DNA of 64,000 bases from a virus: positions 51,582 through 115,581 of the IMG/VR virus record IMGVR_UViG_3300023210_000013, one strand, 5' to 3'. The notes under the pieces were generated by a model. It ran no database searches and was not told the DNA's origin. It saw nothing but the letters and a program-made list of their open reading frames with translations. A program made the position numbers and the translations under genes. Shown in pieces: positions 28,907 to 63,872 of this stretch (within the stretch, counting starts at the first letter, position 1; each line of letters opens with the position of its first letter).

Positions 28907-31099
28907 TTATCTAAAATTTTTATATGCTGATCTTTTTTTACCCTTTTGACCACCGTGTACAGTTTTTCCTCTTCCAATATTCCTAAACGGACTATACTTT
29001 AATTTATGCAAATTTTTTGACTTATCCAAAGAATTTGCGTCATCAGATTCAGTTCTTTTCAAATAACCTCTATTTGACTCCTGTATACGGACAAAAGCTA
29101 CCAACGCTGAAAAGGCAACAAGCCTATCTACGTTGAGCCCTGGGTAAAAAGCTAGCATTTCTTTAATTAACATTGGATCTGGTATTCTTGTTATTCCAAG
29201 AGTTGTATTTAGTACATTACCTTCAGCATCAGTTTCTTGATCAATTTCTTCTCTTAAAAATTCAATAGCATAAGAAATAAGATGTTGCTTAAATAATGTC
29301 CCTGTGTTTTTCCAACCGTATTCTTGATATACAGTCTTGTTAGATCCCAGATCTTTTAAGAATAATATTTGTGCTTTTGGTACAAGATATTTTTGCTTTC
29401 TTTTGGCAATCATATGTTGTATAAATAGAGATATATTATTCTCTACAATAGTCCAAGCATTAAACCATATTATTATTTTTTCTAACTGCTCATGTGTTTT
29501 ATTAATATCATCATATCTACCACACCATGCAGCTACTAATTTTGCGTTTTCTATAAAAACTTCTAATCCATTAGGTCCTTCACGTTTTATCTCTACAGCA
29601 TTCTTATATACAAAAATACTACAAAGGGAATCAGATGTAGTTGTTTTACCTTCTGATACAGGATCAATAGAAGCATAGTATGCTCCAAACTCTGGATTAG
29701 GTACTGGTCTTTCCCATACAACAAGACATCCTGTTTTGTCTTGCATTTTTTTATCTACAGGAAATTTATTAATGGGTAATTTATTAGAACGTTTAGCCTC
29801 AATACCTTTTTGTGTTCTGTCTAATTCTATATGCTCATATGCATATTCTTTATCTTCAATTACTTTAAGTTGTCTTGAAAGTAAGCCTTGAGGAAACACA
29901 GATTCTTTTCTATATGCAAAAGCTTCTGCAATATTTGTAGGTTTCTGAGAAATACGCAATTGATATTGTTCAGCTCCTAATTCATTCTTCCATCTTTTTC
30001 TTTCAAGGAATATTGCATCAAGAGCTTCTTTAACCAATGTGTTACCCCACTCATCAATATGAGGTGGCATAGACCACTGTTCAGGAATAAATAACCCTGA
30101 TATACCAATGGTACCATCTTTGTCTATTAGATTTGTTTCTACGGGGTATATATCATTATTGATAGGGTTCATTACCATATCCTTCAATGGTTCACATTGA
30201 TTTAAATCACCTACTGATCCAGCTGCTATAAACATACCTGTTGTTACCATACCTGATGACATTGCAGGACGTAGGTACTCATATGTCTGCATCATCTTAG
30301 GAGCAATACCGGCTTCTTCATGAAAGAAGTAAGTAGTTGGTCCACCAACACCTGTAGTAGCATTTTTTTCAAAGGATGCCCCTTGTATTTTTGATTTAAG
30401 TCCTCTAGAAGTTTTTCTATTACCTACTTTAACTTCAATTTGTTGTTGCCACAATAATACTTTTTCTGGATTACTTGGTCTATACCAAGCAGTGTGTTCA
30501 TTAAGGAAAGTTTTATATTCATCTAAAAACTTCCAAGATCCTTTATCATTAATATAATCTTTTAAGGATGCACCAATTTTACACGTACTACCTTCTTCAA
30601 ACCAATACGTATTAATTATTTTTCCCATATGAAAATATGAGGAAGCTATCTGACGTTTTTTAAGTATAGCACTATGTTTGTAATGTAACTCAGCTAGTAT
30701 TTCATATAAAGCCATGTGATACTGTGCATCACGTACTTTAGCAAAACCATAATGTTTTTCTTCTTTATCATATATTGGTAAAAAATTTAACCACATATAA
30801 TAATCTCTTGTTAAATACCAAGTAAGGGGTCCATCTTTATAGATAACCCCTTCACGGCATTTGTCTTTCTCAGAGTTCCAATACAGTATAAAATCTTTAG
30901 ATCTAAAAGGTGCTAAACAATAAACATTCTCTTTATTGAATCTTCTAGCCTCTTGATTAAATACTAAAGCTGTTTTATTAAATTGATACTGACCTGGTTC
31001 TTTAAATACTGATTTAACAAAATCTATAAACTCTTCTCTTGTTTCATATTCAGTATCCGTCCATTGGCCATTATCCCATGTTGGAACTATTTTATACAT
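28907..31099 (-). CDS. terL: Terminase large subunit
   Basis: Walker A-like LKKRQIASS, Walker B FFHEEAG, nuclease SIDP and NVDRLVA. Confidence 0.88.
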   Translation of the reverse strand: MYKIVPTWDNGQWTDTEYETREEFIDFVKSVFKEPGQYQFNKTALVFNQEARRFNKENVYCLAPFRSKDFILYWNSEKDKCREGVIYKDGPLTWYLTRDYYMWLNFLPIYDKEEKHYGFAKVRDAQYHMALYEILAELHYKHSAILKKRQIASSYFHMGKIINTYWFEEGSTCKIGASLKDYINDKGSWKFLDEYKTFLNEHTAWYRPSNPEKVLLWQQQIEVKVGNRKTSRGLKSKIQGASFEKNATTGVGGPTTYFFHEEAGIAPKMMQTYEYLRPAMSSGMVTTGMFIAAGSVGDLNQCEPLKDMVMNPINNDIYPVETNLIDKDGTIGISGLFIPEQWSMPPHIDEWGNTLVKEALDAIFLERKRWKNELGAEQYQLRISQKPTNIAEAFAYRKESVFPQGLLSRQLKVIEDKEYAYEHIELDRTQKGIEAKRSNKLPINKFPVDKKMQDKTGCLVVWERPVPNPEFGAYYASIDPVSEGKTTTSDSLCSIFVYKNAVEIKREGPNGLEVFIENAKLVAAWCGRYDDINKTHEQLEKIIIWFNAWTIVENNISLFIQHMIAKRKQKYLVPKAQILFLKDLGSNKTVYQEYGWKNTGTLFKQHLISYAIEFLREEIDQETDAEGNVLNTTLGITRIPDPMLIKEMLAFYPGLNVDRLVAFSALVAFVRIQESNRGYLKRTESDDANSLDKSKNLHKLKYSPFRNIGRGKTVHGGQKGKKRSAYKNFR

Positions 31100-31383
31100 T
31101 AATGTTCTTTTAAGATTGCGTATATATCACCAAAGTTAATCAATAAGTGTTTCTCTCCGTCATGTAATAATTCAGTTGGTACACAAAAGTCAGCATATTG
31201 AATTAAATCACCCACTTTAATTGTATCATCTAATTCATTACCTACAGCAACAACAAAACCTTTGTACTCTTTTGTTTGTGCAATATCAGGTATAATAATA
31301 TTTGTACCAGGCACAAATTTATCTGCTTGTTTTAGTTTTATCAATACCTTTTTTCCTACTGGAATAATTGTTGTTTTCTTCAT
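31099..31383 (-). CDS. groES: Co-chaperonin GroES
   Basis: IIPVGKKVLI, IIIPD, GFVVAVG, IKVGD and DIYAIL match the Cpn10 pattern. Confidence 0.85.
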   Translation of the reverse strand: MKKTTIIPVGKKVLIKLKQADKFVPGTNIIIPDIAQTKEYKGFVVAVGNELDDTIKVGDLIQYADFCVPTELLHDGEKHLLINFGDIYAILKEH

Positions 31384-51367: not shown

Positions 51368-51844
51368 ATGAAATGGTTTATACCAGGTAATGTTCCAAGT
51401 TCAAAAAATGGACGTAGATGGACAGGAAAGTACTTTATAGCTAGTAAAGCTACTATGACTTATAGAAAAGATACAAAATCTTACTATGAGGATTTTGCCA
51501 CACCTTTTAAAAAAGTATTAGCAAAATATGAATTTCCAGTAAAAATTGGTTTTACATTTCACAGAGGGAGCCGTCATAAGTTTGACTATTTAAATCCTGC
51601 ACAAACGGTGCAAGATGATATGGTTAAAGCAGGGTGGATTGAAGATGATAATGCTGAATTTATGATTCCAGCATTTGAACAATACATATATGACAAAGAA
51701 AACCCTGGAGTATGGATAGAAATATTAAAAGAAAATGAATTAAAAAAAGATGGACTCAAAGGACAAAAAAGCGGAACAAAAAATAAAGACAATTCTAAAT
51801 CTTCTGAAAGCAAAAGACCAAGGAATACAGGAAATAAAAATTAA
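51368..51844 (+). CDS. RusA-like Holliday junction resolvase
   Basis: PSSKN, FDYLN, QDDMV and IEDDN motifs. Confidence 0.7.
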   Translation: MKWFIPGNVPSSKNGRRWTGKYFIASKATMTYRKDTKSYYEDFATPFKKVLAKYEFPVKIGFTFHRGSRHKFDYLNPAQTVQDDMVKAGWIEDDNAEFMIPAFEQYIYDKENPGVWIEILKENELKKDGLKGQKSGTKNKDNSKSSESKRPRNTGNKN

Positions 51845-52121
51845 TTTTTCAGGTAGTGGAGACTCTGGTGATATTGATGATGTAGAATTTTACACATTTT
51901 ATGGAGGTACCGTTTCACCTAAAGAAGTTGATACAGATACTTTTGTAGACTTAGCATGGGAACTTATTAGAGAAAAAGTTGATCCGGTAGGTGATTGGGT
52001 TAATAATGAAGGTGGTTATGGTAATATTACTATATACGCTGAAACTGGTAAGTATGACATAGAATATAGTCAAAGAACAACAGAAGATTATGATTGGGGT
52101 GACTGTAGCTTATTTATATAA
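51750..52121 (+). CDS. DUF6878-like protein
   Basis: FSGSGDSGDIDDV...DWVNNEGGYG. Confidence 0.7.
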   Translation: MDSKDKKAEQKIKTILNLLKAKDQGIQEIKINFSGSGDSGDIDDVEFYTFYGGTVSPKEVDTDTFVDLAWELIREKVDPVGDWVNNEGGYGNITIYAETGKYDIEYSQRTTEDYDWGDCSLFI

Positions 52122-52468
52122 TGGCACATCCTAATTTACACGCAAAAAGTTCAGTAAGAAAATGGGGTGGCAAACCTGAAGATTATATTGCAATACATGA
52201 TTGGTTAGATGAAACTAAATCTTGGGTTGGACATAGTATTCATAGAATGTTCCGTCATCATTCAGAAGGAATTTTTGAAGCAGAAAAGTTATTTGGAAAT
52301 AGTTTTACTAATACAGATGGTAAAACAGTATATACAAGATATGTTGCAGAACAACATGTAAAAGAAGATTGTAATAATTACATACCTTCAGCTAAAGAAT
52401 GGTTAACCCATATGAACCGGGAAAAGAAACCAGACTGGATGAGAAAAACACTTAAAATAGAAGATTAA
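52121..52468 (+). CDS. DUF6915-like His-rich protein
   Basis: HPNLHAKSS..WGG..EDY..IHDWLDE..HRMFRHHSEGIF..EQHVKED. Confidence 0.75.
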   Translation: MAHPNLHAKSSVRKWGGKPEDYIAIHDWLDETKSWVGHSIHRMFRHHSEGIFEAEKLFGNSFTNTDGKTVYTRYVAEQHVKEDCNNYIPSAKEWLTHMNREKKPDWMRKTLKIED

Positions 52469-52469
52469 T

Positions 52470-52895
52470 ATGAATGTATTAAGCATATCAGAATATCACG
52501 AGCTAGTAAAAATGTTACGCAGTTCAAAAGATGATAGAGAAATTGTAATTGAAAATTTAAAAAACTTAGACATAGATGATATATATAAAATCTTTGTTTT
52601 AAAAAGTTCTAAATTAGATCACAGAGAAGAAGTATTAAAGCCTCTTAAATTTTTGTTTGATAATGAACCTTTTAAAAGTTTGTATGAAACTGTTGATAGA
52701 AGATGGGGTGGTCAAGATATTGTTCTTGATTTATCTTGGTCAACATTACATAAACTTATCAAAGAAAATTATAGTGATAATCAAGATGTAAAAAATCTAT
52801 TTGAATTAGTATTTAAATCAGAAACAGAGTCTACTATTATTAAAGCATTAAGCTTTGATTTTGTTGACACTGTTGAAACAACTATTAAATGGTAA
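52470..52895 (+). CDS. Hypothetical helical protein (motif shared with 55321 and 56342)
   Basis: LSISEYHELVKMLRSSKDDREIVIENLKNLD. Confidence 0.6.
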   Translation: MNVLSISEYHELVKMLRSSKDDREIVIENLKNLDIDDIYKIFVLKSSKLDHREEVLKPLKFLFDNEPFKSLYETVDRRWGGQDIVLDLSWSTLHKLIKENYSDNQDVKNLFELVFKSETESTIIKALSFDFVDTVETTIKW

Positions 52896-54052
52896 AAACA
52901 GGAGATCAACTTGCTAAAGCAAGTAAAACATTAATACTACAAGAGCCCTTTTACGGGCTCTTTTTAGTTGGCCTTAATAAAGCCATTAGAAAAGACATAC
53001 CAACGGCTGGCGTTAGCAAGCATGGTATTGGTGTACAGTTAAGCGTTAACCCTGACTTTCTTGATTCTTTATCAGAAGATCATAGAGTAGGATTAGTTAA
53101 ACATGAAATATTACATATAAGTTTTGGGCATTTAATTATGCGTGATATTTATAATGATAAAAAATTGTTTAACATAGCCGCTGACTTAGAAATAAATCAA
53201 TATATAGAAACAAAGTACTTACCTACAGGTGGAATAACAATGGATACATTTCCAGAGTTAACTTTACCAGCACGGGCGGGTACTAAAGTTTATTATGATT
53301 TACTATCACAAGCAAAAGATGACGGTACATGTCAATCTCTTGACTCAATGTTAAATGATGAAACAGGGGACAGTCCTTATGATGATCACGGAACTTGGGA
53401 AGAATTTGATGACTTAAGTGAAGCTGATAAAAAACTAGTTCAAAAGCAAGTTGAACATCAGTTAAAGGAAGTTGCTGAACAGACAGAAAAAAGACAAGGT
53501 AGTTTGCCTGGTGAGCTGGCTGAGTTGATTGGTAGATTACGTCATATAGAACCAGCTAAATTTGATTGGAAAGCTTACTTAAGAAGATTTGTAGGAAACT
53601 CTTCTATTTCTTATACAAAGAAACTTAGAAGAAAGTATAACAAACGTTATGTAGCAAATCCAGGACTTAAGATTAAGTTTAAGAATCATATACTTGTTGG
53701 TGTTGATACATCAGGATCAGTATCTAGTGCAGAGCTAATAGAGTTTATGAATGAAATATGCCATATGCATAAGACAGGTCATCAAATTACAGTAGCGCAG
53801 TGTGATACACAATTAAATTCTGTAGAAGAATTCAACCCAAAGAAAGATTGGGCCATAAAAGGTAGAGGTGGTACATCATTTCAACCTGTAATAGATCATT
53901 ACAATGAGCATGGTAAATACACAGCTCTAATATATTTAACAGATGGTGAAGCATACAATCCAGATGACTGTCCTCCAAATACCTTATGGGTAATAAGCAG
54001 TAGAGCAGAACTGAATAATGACTTACCAGGAAGAGTAATAAAATTAAATTAA
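52889..54052 (+). CDS. Zn-metallopeptidase-like plus vWA domain protein (DUF2201 type)
   Basis: HEILH, NIAADLEIN, MIDAS DTSGS, GRGGT and LTDG. Confidence 0.88.
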   Translation: MVKTGDQLAKASKTLILQEPFYGLFLVGLNKAIRKDIPTAGVSKHGIGVQLSVNPDFLDSLSEDHRVGLVKHEILHISFGHLIMRDIYNDKKLFNIAADLEINQYIETKYLPTGGITMDTFPELTLPARAGTKVYYDLLSQAKDDGTCQSLDSMLNDETGDSPYDDHGTWEEFDDLSEADKKLVQKQVEHQLKEVAEQTEKRQGSLPGELAELIGRLRHIEPAKFDWKAYLRRFVGNSSISYTKKLRRKYNKRYVANPGLKIKFKNHILVGVDTSGSVSSAELIEFMNEICHMHKTGHQITVAQCDTQLNSVEEFNPKKDWAIKGRGGTSFQPVIDHYNEHGKYTALIYLTDGEAYNPDDCPPNTLWVISSRAELNNDLPGRVIKLN

Positions 54053-54065
54053 TAAAAACACAATT

Positions 54066-55319
54066 ATGGCACAAGTAAATTTAAACATTGATGACTTAAA
54101 AGGATTTGTAAATCACGTTATTACAAATAACAGATTTTTACAAGAACAAGGAAAACTACCAGTAGCAATAGAAGTAGTAGGAGAATCAGGAATAGGTAAA
54201 ACATCTACAGTAGTAGAATTAGCAAAAGAAAATAATTTACATTTTGTAAAGCTAAACTTAGCTCAGATAGAAGAGTTAGGTGACTTAGTGGGTTTCCCTG
54301 TACGTCAATTTCAGATGTATAAAGAGAAAACAATTAAGAAAGTAGATGATTTAAACTATACGGCAAAAGCAGGGAATGATTTAGCTAAACTAGGAGGTAC
54401 TATTACTAAAAAAGTAGGCCAATGGGTTGATGAGTTAGCAGTAGATGCTTATTTAAAGAACGGCTATAAGATGGCTGGTAAAAATAGAATGTCTTATGCT
54501 GCTCCTGAATGGATTGCTGATGTAAAACAAGGTGGTATATTACTACTTGATGACTGGAACAGAGCTGATACAAGGTTTATACAAGCCTGTATGGAGCTTA
54601 TTGACCGTCAGCAGTATATTTCATGGTCTTTACCAAAAGACTGGCATATAATGCTTACAGCTAATCCAGACAACGGTGATTACAATGTAAATTCATTAGA
54701 TTCTGCACAGAAAACCAGATATATTACTGCAAACCTTAAGTTTGACGTTAATGTATGGGCAAGATGGGCTGAAGAAGCAGGTATAGATTCAAGATGTATT
54801 AACTTTTTGTTATTACACCCGGAGTTAGTAACGCAAGAAACTAATTCAAGATCTATTACTACTTTCTTTAATTCAATCTCAAGCTTTGAGAATTTTGAAG
54901 ACAACTTAAGTATGATCCAAATGATTGGTGAAGGTTCAGTAGGAGACACATTTGCTTCTATGTTTACTACTTTTATTAATAATAAACTGGACAAACTGGT
55001 AACACCTAAAGATTTATTAACTCATGAAAATGAATCATATATTCTTGGAGAGTTAAGAGGTTGTATTGGTCAAGATGATTCATACCGCGCAGATATTGCA
55101 TCAACACTAGCTACTCGTTTAGCTAATTATGCTGTAGTATATTCTAAAGAAAATACAGTTAATCAGAAAATTACTGATAGACTAAAGTCTTTAGCAACTA
55201 AAGATTACTTTACAAATGACTTAAAGTATCTTATTGTTAGAACTATTTTTAATGGAAACAAACAAAAGTTTAATAAACTAATGATGATCCCTGAGATTAT
55301 TAAAATGACAATGAAATAG
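54066..55319 (+). CDS. MoxR-like AAA+ ATPase
   Basis: GESGIGKT, LLLDDWNRA, TANP, LDSAQKTR and NSRS. Confidence 0.85.
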   Translation: MAQVNLNIDDLKGFVNHVITNNRFLQEQGKLPVAIEVVGESGIGKTSTVVELAKENNLHFVKLNLAQIEELGDLVGFPVRQFQMYKEKTIKKVDDLNYTAKAGNDLAKLGGTITKKVGQWVDELAVDAYLKNGYKMAGKNRMSYAAPEWIADVKQGGILLLDDWNRADTRFIQACMELIDRQQYISWSLPKDWHIMLTANPDNGDYNVNSLDSAQKTRYITANLKFDVNVWARWAEEAGIDSRCINFLLLHPELVTQETNSRSITTFFNSISSFENFEDNLSMIQMIGEGSVGDTFASMFTTFINNKLDKLVTPKDLLTHENESYILGELRGCIGQDDSYRADIASTLATRLANYAVVYSKENTVNQKITDRLKSLATKDYFTNDLKYLIVRTIFNGNKQKFNKLMMIPEIIKMTMK

Positions 55320-55320
55320 A

Positions 55321-56349
55321 ATGGCAAATAAATCAGTATATCAAGTCTTTAATACTGATGCATTGACACACTTTGGTTTAGATAGTGCCCCAATATATGG
55401 GGTACTAACTACCAATGGTGTTGAAGATGTATTGTTAACACAAGACAAAACTATTTATGAAAAAATATCACGTTTACTCACAGTTCCTAATGAATCTGAC
55501 ACAACGTTTATAAATAAAAAGAAAGCTTTTATATTACCTAAGTGTGATGTATCTCAAGACAGACTTAAAGCAGCACTAAAAGAACATAAAATTACAGTAA
55601 CTAATGATTATGAACTTGCTGATCTTGTAATAGGTCATGAAGAAATAGAACAAAGAATAGAAAGTGGTAATAATATACCATCTACTTTAATGTTAGCAAA
55701 ACTTTGGAATATGGAATCTGTATCTAATACTGGTGGTTCTATCAAAGCTGTAGATAATCATAATAGTCACACAATTGTAACTAATAAAATTACTGAAGTA
55801 GTAAGATATTACAGTTTAGACATAGAAGAAACACTATATGATGAGTGGATGTTGACAGGTTTAGCAATAAATTTAGCTTATAAAATTGATACAGGTGTTG
55901 TAGGTACTATAGATACACATACCGTATTACATTCTTCAGCTAACAGAATGGTTTTAGATGAGTCTTTACTTGAGATGCTTAAATCTCAATTAAATTCACA
56001 TTCAAGTGATGATTCACATTTAGCAGGAGCTGTTATACCTACAATAGATTATACTAAAAATCATCATTTACTTTGGCAATTTGCACATGATGTTCAATAC
56101 AAAATGCATAAATTTAATAGAAATAAAGATGTTCAATATTGGATTGATCAATCTAATTTTGAATTGTATGCTAATTTTGGTGCTGAAGAAATGATAACTC
56201 ATTTAGAAGAAAATAAGTTACTTGATAAGATAACATTTAGATATCTTGAACCTATTTGTAGAAAAGAAATCAGTATACATAATAGAGAACTTTATGTCTT
56301 TAAAGTAAATGTAAAAAAAGAATATTTAAAATATTTAAAAAATGACTAA
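55321..56349 (+). CDS. Hypothetical protein with BRCT-like N-terminal motif
   Basis: KKAFILPKCDVSQDRLK...KITVTNDYELADLVIG. Confidence 0.55.
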   Translation: MANKSVYQVFNTDALTHFGLDSAPIYGVLTTNGVEDVLLTQDKTIYEKISRLLTVPNESDTTFINKKKAFILPKCDVSQDRLKAALKEHKITVTNDYELADLVIGHEEIEQRIESGNNIPSTLMLAKLWNMESVSNTGGSIKAVDNHNSHTIVTNKITEVVRYYSLDIEETLYDEWMLTGLAINLAYKIDTGVVGTIDTHTVLHSSANRMVLDESLLEMLKSQLNSHSSDDSHLAGAVIPTIDYTKNHHLLWQFAHDVQYKMHKFNRNKDVQYWIDQSNFELYANFGAEEMITHLEENKLLDKITFRYLEPICRKEISIHNRELYVFKVNVKKEYLKYLKND

Positions 56350-57427
56350 ATTATATACCTTTGATATTACATATAGAGAAGGACAAACAATTGATTATAC
56401 ATGCTTTAATGGAAGTTATGTAGGAGAGGATATAGGATTGGGTAGTTGGCACTCACCGGGATATCCTGTAATAAACACACATACACCTTCATCTGTTGAT
56501 TTGCAAGATAAAACAGTATATAGATATCCAAAATTAACTCTACCAAGAGCAAAAATGGATACCTTAAAGGAAAAAAACAATTTAAAAGTTACTAGAAATA
56601 AAGCAAATGCAGATTTTATAATTATTTCTAAAAACTTTATTACTAGTATGACACTTTCAAGTTGGACTTCTTACGTATCATTTGAAAAGTTTGTAAACCA
56701 TCTTAAAGAAGAAAATTATAAACAGGATATTATAGATTATTTTGATAATTATGATAAAAGTGATTTAATGTCACTAAAAAGTAGTTATTATAATGGCCCA
56801 GCTGTTATATCTAAAATGAATGATTTTATAAGAGACAAGGGAGAAAACAATCACTGGTATATTCCTGCAGAGTTTAAGCAACTTTATAATGAAGTTAAAT
56901 CTTGTAATAATCTTGTTTATGATAAGCATATGGTTGCTTTATGTAATGAAGATTCAGTAGTTTTGACTAAAGAAGAGTATAGAAATGTTCAGACCATGAT
57001 AAAAAGTGGTGATAAACAAAACAGAGCTCTTGCAGTAGAACTAATTGCTAATTGTAACTTAGAAGATTCTTTAGACTATGTTGCATTAATTTATTATTTC
57101 TTGTATGACTATTTAAAGGATGCCAGTAACTGGAATAGTGTTAATGTTAAAACACTAAGAAAAAGAATGGATGATTTTACACCTTATGGGAATGCACAGT
57201 ATGGAAATCTGTATGACACTTTTATTAAAAAACTAATAAAAGAAGATTATTTGACCCAATTTGCTTTTGATGAAACTGCTAGATATGCTTTTCACAATGT
57301 TGTAAAAAGATCTATGTCACTAGGTGATGAAAATGCATTTGTTATGGATGTATCATCTATTAAACCAAGTAAAAAATGTGCAGAGGCAATAAAAATACCA
57401 CAAATTTTAACTAAGGAGTTCAATTAA
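56342..57427 (+). CDS. Hypothetical protein with BRCT-like motif, paralog of 55321
   Basis: KTVYRYPKLTLPRAKMD...NLKVTRNKANADFIII. Confidence 0.55.
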   Translation: MTKLYTFDITYREGQTIDYTCFNGSYVGEDIGLGSWHSPGYPVINTHTPSSVDLQDKTVYRYPKLTLPRAKMDTLKEKNNLKVTRNKANADFIIISKNFITSMTLSSWTSYVSFEKFVNHLKEENYKQDIIDYFDNYDKSDLMSLKSSYYNGPAVISKMNDFIRDKGENNHWYIPAEFKQLYNEVKSCNNLVYDKHMVALCNEDSVVLTKEEYRNVQTMIKSGDKQNRALAVELIANCNLEDSLDYVALIYYFLYDYLKDASNWNSVNVKTLRKRMDDFTPYGNAQYGNLYDTFIKKLIKEDYLTQFAFDETARYAFHNVVKRSMSLGDENAFVMDVSSIKPSKKCAEAIKIPQILTKEFN

Positions 57428-57440
57428 AGCCATAATTGTT

Positions 57441-57477
57441 GGGACCTGCCTAAACAACAGGTCCCTCTCCTTTTTTT
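57441..57477 (+). terminator. Intrinsic terminator closing the MoxR/vWA block
   Basis: GGGACCTG...CAGGTCCC, then a short spacer and a T-run. Confidence 0.7.
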
Positions 57478-57489
57478 AACAAAACAAAA

Positions 57490-59583: not shown

Positions 59584-61590
59584 ATGAATCATTGGGTAAT
59601 GGACTATGAAACATTGTATGATTGTTTTACAGCCGTGTTTGAACACTACAAAACTAAGGAAACTAAAGTTTTTGTAATTAGCAGGTTAAGAAATGATCAG
59701 TCAGAGTTTTTAAGTTTCTTAAAACAAAACATAAATAAAAAAGAGTGGCATATATCCTATAACGGATTAGCATTTGATGCGCAAGTCACTCATTATATAT
59801 TAGATAATGTTGATAGTTGGAAAGACCAAGAAGGTTTAGATCTTGATGGTCATTTAACAGCTAACATAATTTACAAGTTTGCTCAGAGAACAATAACAAA
59901 AAGTAACAATAGAGAGTTTGCTGATTATCCTGAATGGAAAATGCAAATAGGTCAAATAGATTTATTTAAAATGCATCATTGGGACAACCCGGCTAAACGT
60001 TCTAGTCTTAAGTGGATTCAGTATAGCATGGATTGGGATAACATTCTTGATATGCCTATTCACCATGGTTCAGAAATACGTAGTCAAGAACAATTAAATA
60101 CTGTACTAGAATACAATATCAATGATGTTAAATCAACTAAAGAAATTTTTAGTAGATCTACTGACTTGATAAAGTTAAGGAAAGAATTGACTGCTACATA
60201 TGATATAAATCTGTTTAGTGCTTCAGAACCTAGAATTAGTAAAGAACTCTTTGCTTACTACATGTCTGATAAGTTAAACATAAACAAAAGAGATCTTAAA
60301 AAAATGAGAACTTTTAGAAAAAGTATAAAGTTTAAAGACATTATACTTGATTATATAAAGTTTGAATCTCCTGAGTTTAAAGGTTTACTTGAAAGGTTTA
60401 AAGCTGTAGAGTTAAACCCTGATAATTTAAAAGGTGCATTTAAGTACTCTTTAGATTACAAAGGTGTTAAGACTCATTTTGGTGTAGGTGGTGTTCATGG
60501 TGCAAGAAAATCAGGTATCTATGAATCAGATGATGATAATATAATTATGTCATCAGATGTTACTTCCTTCTATCCCAATTTGGTAATTAGAAATAAGTGG
60601 GCACCCGGTCACTTTCCTGTAGATGAATTTTGCAATCAGTATGAATGGTTCTTTGAAGAGCGTAAGAAGATACCTAAGAGCAATCCAATGAATTATGTAT
60701 ATAAGATTATACTAAATTCTACTTTTGGTCTTAGCAATGATGTAAATAGCTTCTTTTATGATCCTGAGCTTACCATGCGCATTACAATTAACGGTCAACT
60801 TAGTTTGATGATGTTATATGAAATGTTAATGGAAAAAATACCTGGAGCAATTCCATTAATGCAAAATACTGATGGTGTAGAAATCAAAATACCTAAAGAG
60901 TATAAAGATGACTACCTTGGTATATGTAAACAATGGGAAGATATCACTAACTTACAGTTAGAACATGATGAATATCAAAAGTTAGTGTTGGGTGATGTAA
61001 ACAATTATATAGGGTTAAACAACTGGAAACAAGTTGATATGAGTATTTGGCGTGATGTTAAAGCTAAAAACCCACATTACAAGTACAAAGTTGATGGAGA
61101 TAAGTTTTTCTTTGCTCCTGCTAAAATGAAAGGTAGATATGACTTTTTTAACTTAGCATTGCATAAAAACAAATCTAAGTTGATTATACCTAAAGCTGTA
61201 TACAATTATTTTATACATGATATATTACCAGAAATTTACTTGAATTCTAATAAAAATATCTTAGATTATTGTATAGGTAGTAAGTCCAAAGGTGATTGGA
61301 AACAAGTAGCTAGAAATATTAAAGATGGAGCTTTTCATGAAGAAGAGTTACAAAAAATAAATAGGTACTATATTTCTAATAACGGAGTTAAAATCATAAA
61401 AGTAAACAAAACAGATGCAAGAGAAATTCAGTTAGAAGCTGGTAAATGGATCCAAAAAGTGTTTAACAATATGAAAATAGAAACGGCCTGGGACAAGTAT
61501 GATATAAACAAGGGGTATTATTTAACTGCTATTGAACAAGAAATCAATAACATTTTAGAAGTACCTAGTAATCAATTAACATTATTCTAA
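59584..61590 (+). CDS. polB: Family B DNA polymerase
   Basis: Exonuclease motifs DYET, YNGLAFD and YNIND; polymerase motifs SDVTSFYP, KIILNSTFG and NTDG. Confidence 0.9.
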   Translation: MNHWVMDYETLYDCFTAVFEHYKTKETKVFVISRLRNDQSEFLSFLKQNINKKEWHISYNGLAFDAQVTHYILDNVDSWKDQEGLDLDGHLTANIIYKFAQRTITKSNNREFADYPEWKMQIGQIDLFKMHHWDNPAKRSSLKWIQYSMDWDNILDMPIHHGSEIRSQEQLNTVLEYNINDVKSTKEIFSRSTDLIKLRKELTATYDINLFSASEPRISKELFAYYMSDKLNINKRDLKKMRTFRKSIKFKDIILDYIKFESPEFKGLLERFKAVELNPDNLKGAFKYSLDYKGVKTHFGVGGVHGARKSGIYESDDDNIIMSSDVTSFYPNLVIRNKWAPGHFPVDEFCNQYEWFFEERKKIPKSNPMNYVYKIILNSTFGLSNDVNSFFYDPELTMRITINGQLSLMMLYEMLMEKIPGAIPLMQNTDGVEIKIPKEYKDDYLGICKQWEDITNLQLEHDEYQKLVLGDVNNYIGLNNWKQVDMSIWRDVKAKNPHYKYKVDGDKFFFAPAKMKGRYDFFNLALHKNKSKLIIPKAVYNYFIHDILPEIYLNSNKNILDYCIGSKSKGDWKQVARNIKDGAFHEEELQKINRYYISNNGVKIIKVNKTDAREIQLEAGKWIQKVFNNMKIETAWDKYDINKGYYLTAIEQEINNILEVPSNQLTLF

Positions 61591-62249
61591 TGGCACAAAA
61601 CGTAGAGAAAAAAGCTCCAAAAGGTTCAGTGAAGTTTACAATAACTCTTTCAGAAGAGCAAAAAGCAGCAAAGGATGCTATATTAAAGCATCCTTTTAAT
61701 TTTATAGTGGGTAATGCAGGTAGTGGTAAAACACTACTTGCAACTCAAGTAGCTCTTGATCAATTTTTTAAACGGAATTACAACAAAATTATCATTACAA
61801 GACCTACAGTGTCTACTGAAGATAATGGTTTTCTTCCTGGTTCAGAAAAAGAAAAAATGGAGCCTTGGTTAGTTCCTATTAGATCTAATATGAGGAAGGT
61901 TTATAACAAACCTGCCATACTAGAAAAAATGGAAAATGAAGAGAAGATTGAATTAGTATCTCTTGCACACTTTAGAGGTAGAACATTTAATAACTCAATA
62001 GTTATTATAGATGAGTTTCAAAATTTAACAAGATCACAACTAGCAATGGTTCTTGGAAGATTAGGTAAAGATTCAACAATGATGCTATGTGGAGATAATC
62101 AACAGATTGATTTAAAAGATAGAAATTATTCTGCTATTAATGAAGTAGCAAAAATAATTGGATCTAAATACGTTAACAAGATTATTTTAACAGATAACCA
62201 CAGACACGAGTCACTAATAGAAGTATTAGAATTATTAAAAAACAATTAA
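61590..62249 (+). CDS. phoH: PhoH-like ATPase
   Basis: GNAGSGKT, ITRP, GFLPG, RGRTF, IDEFQN and GDNQQID. Confidence 0.92.
   Translation: MAQNVEKKAPKGSVKFTITLSEEQKAAKDAILKHPFNFIVGNAGSGKTLLATQVALDQFFKRNYNKIIITRPTVSTEDNGFLPGSEKEKMEPWLVPIRSNMRKVYNKPAILEKMENEEKIELVSLAHFRGRTFNNSIVIIDEFQNLTRSQLAMVLGRLGKDSTMMLCGDNQQIDLKDRNYSAINEVAKIIGSKYVNKIILTDNHRHESLIEVLELLKNN

Positions 62250-63872
<1,623 letters not shown>

Follow-up and report, generated by a model that had tools for sequence, protein, structure and literature searches.

We analysed a 64,000-nt stretch of viral DNA (the window), which forms the right-hand 64 kb of the 115,581-base IMG/VR virus record IMGVR_UViG_3300023210_000013, with a completeness rating of 100%. 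Five adjoining genes in the window make up a conserved unit: X1, a zincin metallopeptidase fused to a vWA domain, an AAA+ ATPase of the AAA_5/MoxR–midasin kind, X2 and X3. From domains, motifs, conservation, adjacency and relatedness we infer the steps of activity and the protein contacts of a MoxR-type remodelling and proteolysis machine, with X1–X3 as lineage-specific adaptors or clients; this is our tentative reading, held at a little under even confidence. The ATPase/zincin–vWA pair has already been described, and the five-gene unit, the X family, its predicted BRCT-like and ARM-like build and the crAss-like setting appear to be new.

The source genome is a 115.6-kb crAss-like phage, the large terminase of which shares roughly 25% identity with crAss-like phage terminases of Bacteroides and Flavobacterium. 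Its host is probably a member of the Bacteroidota. Its structural genes (terminase, portal, capsid and tail fibres) occupy positions 751–31099 of the − strand, within a − strand arm that extends to around 35 kb. The five-gene unit sits within the + strand replication and recombination arm, in which the block is preceded, in order, by genes for a DnaB-like helicase, Sak4, a 217-amino-acid protein, a primase and RusA, and is followed after X3 by genes for a PD-(D/E)XK exonuclease, two small proteins, DNA polymerase, PhoH and GroEL.

We compared the window with 80 IMG/VR loci whose ATPase is 82–91% identical to its own. All 80 loci have the vWA and ATPase genes, 79 have X2 and 74 have X3, with X2 or X3 missing only where loci end early. 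Upstream of the vWA gene, 79 of the 80 loci have an open reading frame that ends no more than 40 nt from the vWA start. Where the two genes that precede X1 in the window (encoding DUF6878 and DUF6915 proteins) are absent, this reading frame encodes a protein of around 100 amino acids (46 distinct sequences), and the profile of this short form matches that of X1 over 118 columns (probability 98.5%, E = 3.4e-15). By profile comparison, X1 of the window is thus the long form of a family that almost all relatives carry ahead of the vWA gene; its apparent rarity by tblastn, which finds it in only 15 of 80 loci, is a sensitivity artefact. Membership of X1 in a variable cassette, as the tblastn result had suggested, is ruled out by these vWA-abutting short homologues. 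A first-pass annotation of the window had joined seven open reading frames at 51750–57427, all of which we located on the + strand, into a single module. Because 79 of 80 loci have an X1 homologue directly before the vWA gene and the two upstream genes are rare (DUF6878 in 16 of 80 loci, DUF6915 in 15), the seven genes are not a unit and the conserved unit is one of five.

The junctions within it are close. The vWA gene lies 4–19 nt upstream of the ATPase gene in 72 of 80 loci, the X2 start follows the ATPase stop codon at −1 to +4 nt in 75 of 79, and X2 and X3 mostly overlap. Related loci also contain insertion hot spots (for example, L009 5593–6001, L079 and L080): the vWA–ATPase gap measures 245–634 nt in 8 of 80 loci, the ATPase–X2 gap 110–344 nt in 4 of 79, and the X3–exonuclease gap up to 844 nt.

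The ATPase and zincin–vWA pair

The zincin–vWA protein (52889–54052, + strand, 387 amino acids) matches DUF2201_N (E = 2.4e-23, 83.5 bits against a Pfam cut-off of 23.2) and DUF2201 (E = 2.7e-16, 60.3 bits against 26.4), as well as phrog_1314 (E = 1.8e-64). Motif conservation was counted over 38–57 distinct clade sequences: the HExxH residues His72, Glu73 and His76 and the MIDAS residues Asp273, Ser275 and Ser277 are invariant in 57 sequences, and Thr329 and Asp352 in 38, which bears out the earlier description of this protein as an HExxH–vWA fusion. A tblastn search gives relatives in 490 phage records, among them those of N4-like, jumbo and Vibrio phages, and a sequence search found no relative among solved structures. 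In phrog_1314 and in many GenBank phage annotations the protein is labelled 'HNH endonuclease'; Pfam gives a zincin (DUF2201_N) and a vWA-like domain only, the motif is HExxH, and the label seems to be an annotation error that has spread. A hairpin and T run resembling a terminator at 52941–52962, inside the start of the vWA gene and over the conserved EPFYGLF motif, is probably coincidental.

The ATPase (54066–55319, + strand, 417 amino acids) matches phrog_1297 (E = 1.4e-36), and its Walker A (GESGIGKTS) and Walker B (ILLLDDWNRAD) motifs, separated by an insert of around 60 amino acids, are invariant in 56 sequences. These features agree with its first assignment as a MoxR-like ATPase. Its closest solved sequences are midasin AAA domains (E = 3.1e-7), and tblastn returned only four phage records at around 20% identity, the nearest being a cyanophage 'MoxR-like ATPase'; judged by its sequence, the protein is a divergent relative only. 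It has the highest conservation in the replication block and yet is almost unrecognizable beyond the clade.

Outside the clade, the pair is adjacent in all three distant phages inspected, where it lies close to helicase or polymerase genes, and one distant record with the pair carries a 'gp25-like' note. We take the pair of N4-like phages to be the one named 'gp24/gp25-like'. The jumbo and N4-like phage pairs belong to the same families (DUF2201_N plus DUF2201, and phrog_1297), are likewise adjacent and have intact HExxH, MIDAS and Walker motifs. The pair studied here differs in occurring in a crAss-like phage amid replication genes, in its very divergent ATPase and in being bracketed by three clade-specific X proteins, which we did not find in the other phages inspected. 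Passages of Iyer et al. (2021; PMC7824862) describe the MoxR AAA+/vWA pair of group 2.2 jumbo phages, in which the vWA protein bears a metallopeptidase at its N terminus, and propose a role in virion assembly with proteolytic processing. By analogy, the present pair might be a virion-assembly chaperone that trims structural proteins, with the X proteins as assembly cofactors. That proposal and the archaeal two-tailed virus precedent given in the same passages speak for such a role, as does the additional presence of GroES and GroEL genes, which points to a heavy investment in folding. We nevertheless regard it as quite improbable, given the position of the genes in the + strand replication arm, away from the − strand structural genes, and the fact that helicase and polymerase genes neighbour the pair in N4-like and Moorella phages too.

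Midasin (Rea1/Mdn1), which provides the closest solved sequence to the ATPase, offers another comparison. Parts of Kaur et al. (2020; PMC7159879) cite work in which its AAA_5-type modules and MIDAS domain pull adaptor-like assembly factors off a complex. Midasin, however, is eukaryotic and unites six AAA modules in a single giant polypeptide that has no peptidase, whereas the phage system comprises separate small proteins and a fused zincin. Our literature search found no experimentally shown function for the ATPase/zincin–vWA pair.

The three X proteins

X1 (52470–52895, + strand, 141 amino acids) is a helical protein, the stop codon of which overlaps the vWA start; it has no Pfam, PHROG or NCBIfam match, and its ESM Atlas scores are at noise level (around 0.8). 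X2 (55321–56349, + strand, 342 amino acids) is predicted to comprise an N-terminal β unit, a BRCT-like domain, an ARM/HEAT-like unit and C-terminal helices, and X3 (56342–57427, + strand, 361 amino acids) to have the same BRCT-like plus ARM/HEAT-like architecture. The helical motifs on which the first-pass annotation based its claim of three paralogues are in place, at residues 4–34 of X1, 212–243 of X2 and 208–239 of X3. Pairwise BLASTP among the three proteins is marginal (E = 0.024, 0.05 and 13). Profile comparison separates the pairs. We used as background 36 controls against 12 unrelated families from the same loci, the best of which reached E = 0.045. X1 and X3 align by hhalign with a probability of 72–75% and an E value of about 3e-5 (up to 3.5e-5), over 36 columns exactly at the motif, and the merged X1 family (56 sequences) matches X3 from residue 205 to around 323 with a probability of 79.9% and E = 1.4e-5 over 102 columns; two independent X1 subfamily profiles match this one region. 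X1–X3 homology is therefore moderately supported, clearly above background by these profiles. Relatedness of X2 and X3 is weak at this level, barely above background, and X1–X2 does not exceed the controls, so that the claim of three paralogues, in the all-against-all comparison proposed to check it, holds moderately for X1–X3, faintly for X2–X3 and not for X1–X2.

What joins X2 to X3 is predicted structure. Their models (mean predicted local distance difference test, pLDDT, scores of 84 and 90, respectively) place a BRCT-like domain at residues ~61–209 of X2 and ~51–204 of X3, interrupted by an insert of around 75 residues, and an ARM/HEAT-like unit at residues ~208–286 and ~205–282, giving what appears to be one two-domain architecture. 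In VIA-align, which rates Z < 8 as middling, 20 of the 50 matches listed for X2 are BRCT domains (Z = 5.4–7.0), the others being helical repeats; among the 50 listed for X3, 10 are BRCT domains (Z = 5.3–6.3) and helical repeats reach Z = 7.1. The BRCT alignments span 68–82 residues with root-mean-square deviations of 2.6–4.0, and residues 205–282 of X3 and 208–286 of X2 match the AP adaptor, β-catenin, cohesin SA2 and similar chains (Z = 5.3–7.1). The two models have 12 matched solved chains in common, over ranges that correspond. Neither protein has a Foldseek match in the PDB at E ≤ 0.001 or a Pfam family, BRCT included, at E ≤ 0.01; since, in addition, all Z scores are below 8, the predicted fold names are likely, not proven. 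The N-terminal BRCT-like segment previously ascribed to both proteins thus finds middling support at the level of the fold (Z = 5.4–7.0) and none as a Pfam sequence match. By profile alone, X1 corresponds to the helical C-terminal domain of X3, making the ARM/HEAT-like unit the probable common element of the three.

This common element could also have arisen by convergence on a common helical hairpin, in which case X1, X2 and X3 would be three unrelated fillers. HEAT-like hairpins are frequent, a helical match that scores below Z = 13 is not necessarily specific, and the E values of 0.062–0.21 between X1 and X2 profiles are inside the control range, all of which suits convergence. It does not readily account for the X1–X3 match over 102 columns, reached from two independent subfamily profiles, or for the agreement of the X2 and X3 models in domain order, domain boundaries and position of the BRCT insert, and we consider it very unlikely.

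Homologues of the X proteins are numerous and anonymous: there are 709 for X2, and 936 clusters at 50% identity for the X3 profile, all without names. BFVD contains four structural relatives of X3 (A0A6J5LXR8, A0A8S5QMV2, A0A8S5TL70 and A0A8S5TKB2; E = 7.6e-10 to 1.3e-7); a crAss-like virus is the source of one, and a single other virus that of both A0A8S5TL70 and A0A8S5TKB2. The ESM Atlas yielded no usable match to X3, NCBIfam and PADLOC nothing meaningful for X1–X3, and we found no further copies of X1, X2 or X3 elsewhere in the phage genome.

Evolutionary rates, linkage and possible function

The genes of the block evolve at very different rates. Median identity to the window is 83.5% for the ATPase, the most conserved, 72% for both the polymerase and the vWA protein, 58% for X2, 33% for X1 and 32.6% for X3, the fastest-evolving gene of the block. 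Within X3, the commonest residue has a mean share of 0.66 per column in the BRCT core and the ARM-like unit, and of 0.31–0.32 in the BRCT insert and the first 50 residues. The combination of a constant motor and hypervariable neighbours is compatible with adaptors that face a changing target; relaxed constraint would fit as well.

Extrapolating from the families to which they belong, the ATPase and the vWA protein would act as a MoxR-type chaperone/co-chaperone pair, in which the AAA+ ring uses ATP to drive remodelling, the vWA domain, through its MIDAS site, holds a client protein by an acidic residue and the fused HExxH zincin cleaves the client so held. The X proteins, presumably made together with the replication genes, would be lineage-specific scaffolds on an ARM/HEAT-like unit, with a BRCT-like domain added in X2 and X3, and would serve as adaptors or clients. 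X2 evolves more slowly and is thus probably the machine-facing X protein, with X1 and X3 as its possible hypervariable, target-facing counterparts. The catalytic motifs are intact and invariant, and this, together with known family behaviour, lends support to the putative remodelling or proteolysis machine put forward in the first-pass annotation. The finding of an X1 homologue beside the vWA gene in 79 of 80 loci strengthens the proposal made there of a family of putative partner proteins, and the three probably share the ARM/HEAT-like unit as well.

Several results weigh against this reading. All 86 X-bearing loci belong to one clade (ATPase identity of at least 82%), in which synteny is just as strong for Sak4, primase, RusA, exonuclease and polymerase; because the X proteins occur in one wholly syntenic clade, their linkage to the pair may be no more than a result of common descent. 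Alteromonas, Pseudomonas and Moorella phages carry the pair with no detectable X relative, hmmsearch and hhalign with the X profiles finding none among the neighbours of the pair in these three phages (E ≥ 0.095). The tight junctions run on beyond X3, with an 8-nt overlap into the exonuclease gene in 36 of 70 loci, and from there into the following gene (g192), 1 nt away in 63 of 65; the coupling first noted is real and does not delimit the unit. The ATPase misses the Pfam cut-offs (AAA_5, 18.9 bits against 22; AAA_3, 17.2 against 27), and its Walker B motif has DD, not DE. Among the X proteins, the X2–X3 profile alignments, colinear over 124–139 columns, are marginal (E = 0.0036 and 0.017), those of X1–X2 (E = 0.048–0.21) lie within the control range, and the fold matches of X2 and X3 are all middling, at Z < 8.

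Searches beyond the clade gave the same picture. X2 has no tblastn match in 50,697 phage records, and nothing was found by way of P0315, a divergent X3 relative. The P0291 loci, taken as another route outwards, proved to belong to the same clade, and every locus fetched, including those with very divergent forms of X3, has the same synteny and an 83%-identical ATPase. Phage phi14:2 returned no match to the vWA protein, and five gut crAss-like phages none to the X3 profile or DUF2201_N, empty answers that carry no weight with the tool used. A check of neighbourhood conservation therefore links the five genes within a single syntenic clade: the association of the X proteins with the pair is perfect yet phylogenetically shallow.

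Such a distribution, with the pair occurring elsewhere without X proteins, would also be expected if X2 and X3, and perhaps X1, were scaffolds for the replisome or for repair, acting alongside the primase, RusA, exonuclease and polymerase and standing beside the pair by shared descent alone. The block lies between RusA and the PD-(D/E)XK exonuclease in a Sak4/primase/polymerase array, X3 overlaps the exonuclease gene in most relatives, and BRCT-like folds resemble those of the repair scaffolds XRCC1, TopBP1 and 53BP1. Residues 61–209 of X2 and 51–204 of X3 align to single BRCT domains of such scaffolds (XRCC1, TopBP1, 53BP1 and PARP4; Z = 5.3–7.0) and differ from them in lacking a Pfam BRCT sequence match and in the ~75-residue insert that interrupts the fold; an LP[KR] motif in X2 and X3 presumably stands at the S/T-G position of BRCT phosphopeptide binders. 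Against a replisome role, X1 and X2 directly adjoin the vWA and ATPase genes, respectively, in almost every locus, the divergence of X1 and X3 is much more rapid than that of any replication protein in the block, which is unusual for a core replisome, and the BRCT matches reach only Z = 5.4–7.0. We consider this alternative doubtful, if the most serious of those weighed here.

The remodelling or proteolysis reading can be taken further, in that X1 and X3 might be hypervariable adaptors that aim the conserved AAA+/MIDAS/zincin machine at changing host proteins for extraction and cleavage, with X2 as a constant bridge. We think this unlikely; if true, it would amount to a phage-encoded, retargetable protein-degradation system, directed at targets such as defence or replication factors. 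A candidate role in anti-defence or host takeover has one observation in its favour, the great speed at which X1 and X3 evolve. A chaperone model for MoxR–vWA systems, and third components within them, are discussed in parts of PMC7159879 and PMC7824862. In the former, bacterial MoxR–vWA ternary conflict systems include a third component such as VMAP. They resemble the present unit in having a chaperone/co-chaperone core with linked, more variable proteins and peptidase effectors; as presented there, they differ in being host-encoded, in their proposed action against invaders and in their parts (VMAP, iSTAND, FtsH and β-propeller). None of these parts turned up for X1–X3 in general Pfam and PADLOC scans (one weak row), which did not include a search with models of them.

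Our literature search, which did not extend to supplements, returned no paper on the five-gene unit, the X family, its build or its crAss-like position, and none joining BRCT, bacteriophage, AAA+ and vWA; papers on crAss and MoxR, judged by title and abstract, were all irrelevant. The ATPase/zincin–vWA pair is carried by hundreds of phages, and the X clade offers candidate clients or adaptors encoded beside it, a question that can be tested by co-expression. Should the X proteins prove to be adaptors, the gap between 83% conservation in the motor and 33% in its partners would suggest an interface shaped by an arms race; otherwise, X2 and X3 would remain predicted BRCT-like scaffolds within a phage replication module.

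Upstream cassette, hairpin and other features

The two genes upstream of X1 encode a DUF6878 protein (51750–52121, + strand, 123 amino acids; Pfam PF21798, E = 7.6e-10) and a DUF6915 protein (52121–52468, + strand, 115 amino acids including 9 histidines; PF21866, E = 2.7e-40). Both family names given earlier are confirmed above the Pfam gathering thresholds (39.3 bits against 24.3 and 137.1 against 27, respectively). The two genes form a cassette that is unrelated to the conserved unit, lies outside it and has been inserted ahead of X1 in a single subclade. DUF6915 occurs in 127 phage records, with hosts that include Streptomyces, Bacillus and Gordonia; it is present without DUF2201_N in phage Tsamsa, and three phages with DUF2201_N are without it. 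It is a small, His-rich and strongly conserved phage protein: at 52166–52368 the DNA of the window is 71–72% identical to that of Bacillus Tsamsa-like phages, and the protein is 45–55% identical to those of Streptomyces, Gordonia and Sinorhizobium phages. Sequence searches found no relative of DUF6915 or DUF6878 among solved structures, and a literature search no mention of either. The start of the DUF6878 gene overlaps the RusA-like gene (51368–51844) by 95 nt. The tail of the RusA-like reading frame is rich in lysine, serine and asparagine; RusA in one cassette-free relative has 125 amino acids and no tail. The tail may be a side effect of cassette insertion.

X3 is followed by a GC-rich, terminator-like hairpin and then TCTCC and seven T residues (57441–57478, + strand; stem-loop at 57441–57466; −16.5 kcal/mol, z = −3.24). 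The stem has 8 bp and the loop 9 nt, and the T run begins 5 nt past the stem; owing to this loop and spacing, a consensus terminator scan did not list it. Equivalent hairpins, which differ in their stems and retain pairing, occur in 10 of 42 distinct downstream sequences, all from the subclade of the window. The strong terminator originally taken to close the block is accordingly a stable hairpin with a T run that is confined to one subclade. Contigs from RNA libraries (one study, two samples) span the block at 95–99% identity, a kind of evidence that cannot show transcription, ends or levels; they also cross the hairpin, which decides nothing on termination.

The phage also encodes homologues of GroES (31099–31383, − strand), PhoH (61590–62249, + strand) and GroEL (62253–63872, + strand), and thus has two chaperone systems besides the MoxR-like one. 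The sequence GCCATAATTGT occurs six times in the window with at most one mismatch (17947, 24454, 24658, 35117, 54060 (−) and 57429), against 1.8 expected, and six occurrences were reached in 0 of 100 shuffles. Four copies lie on start codons as ACAATTATGGC, at three − strand gene starts and at that of the ATPase. The copy at 57429 is reversed and stands directly before the hairpin that follows X3; it is kept in the 10 hairpin-bearing relatives.

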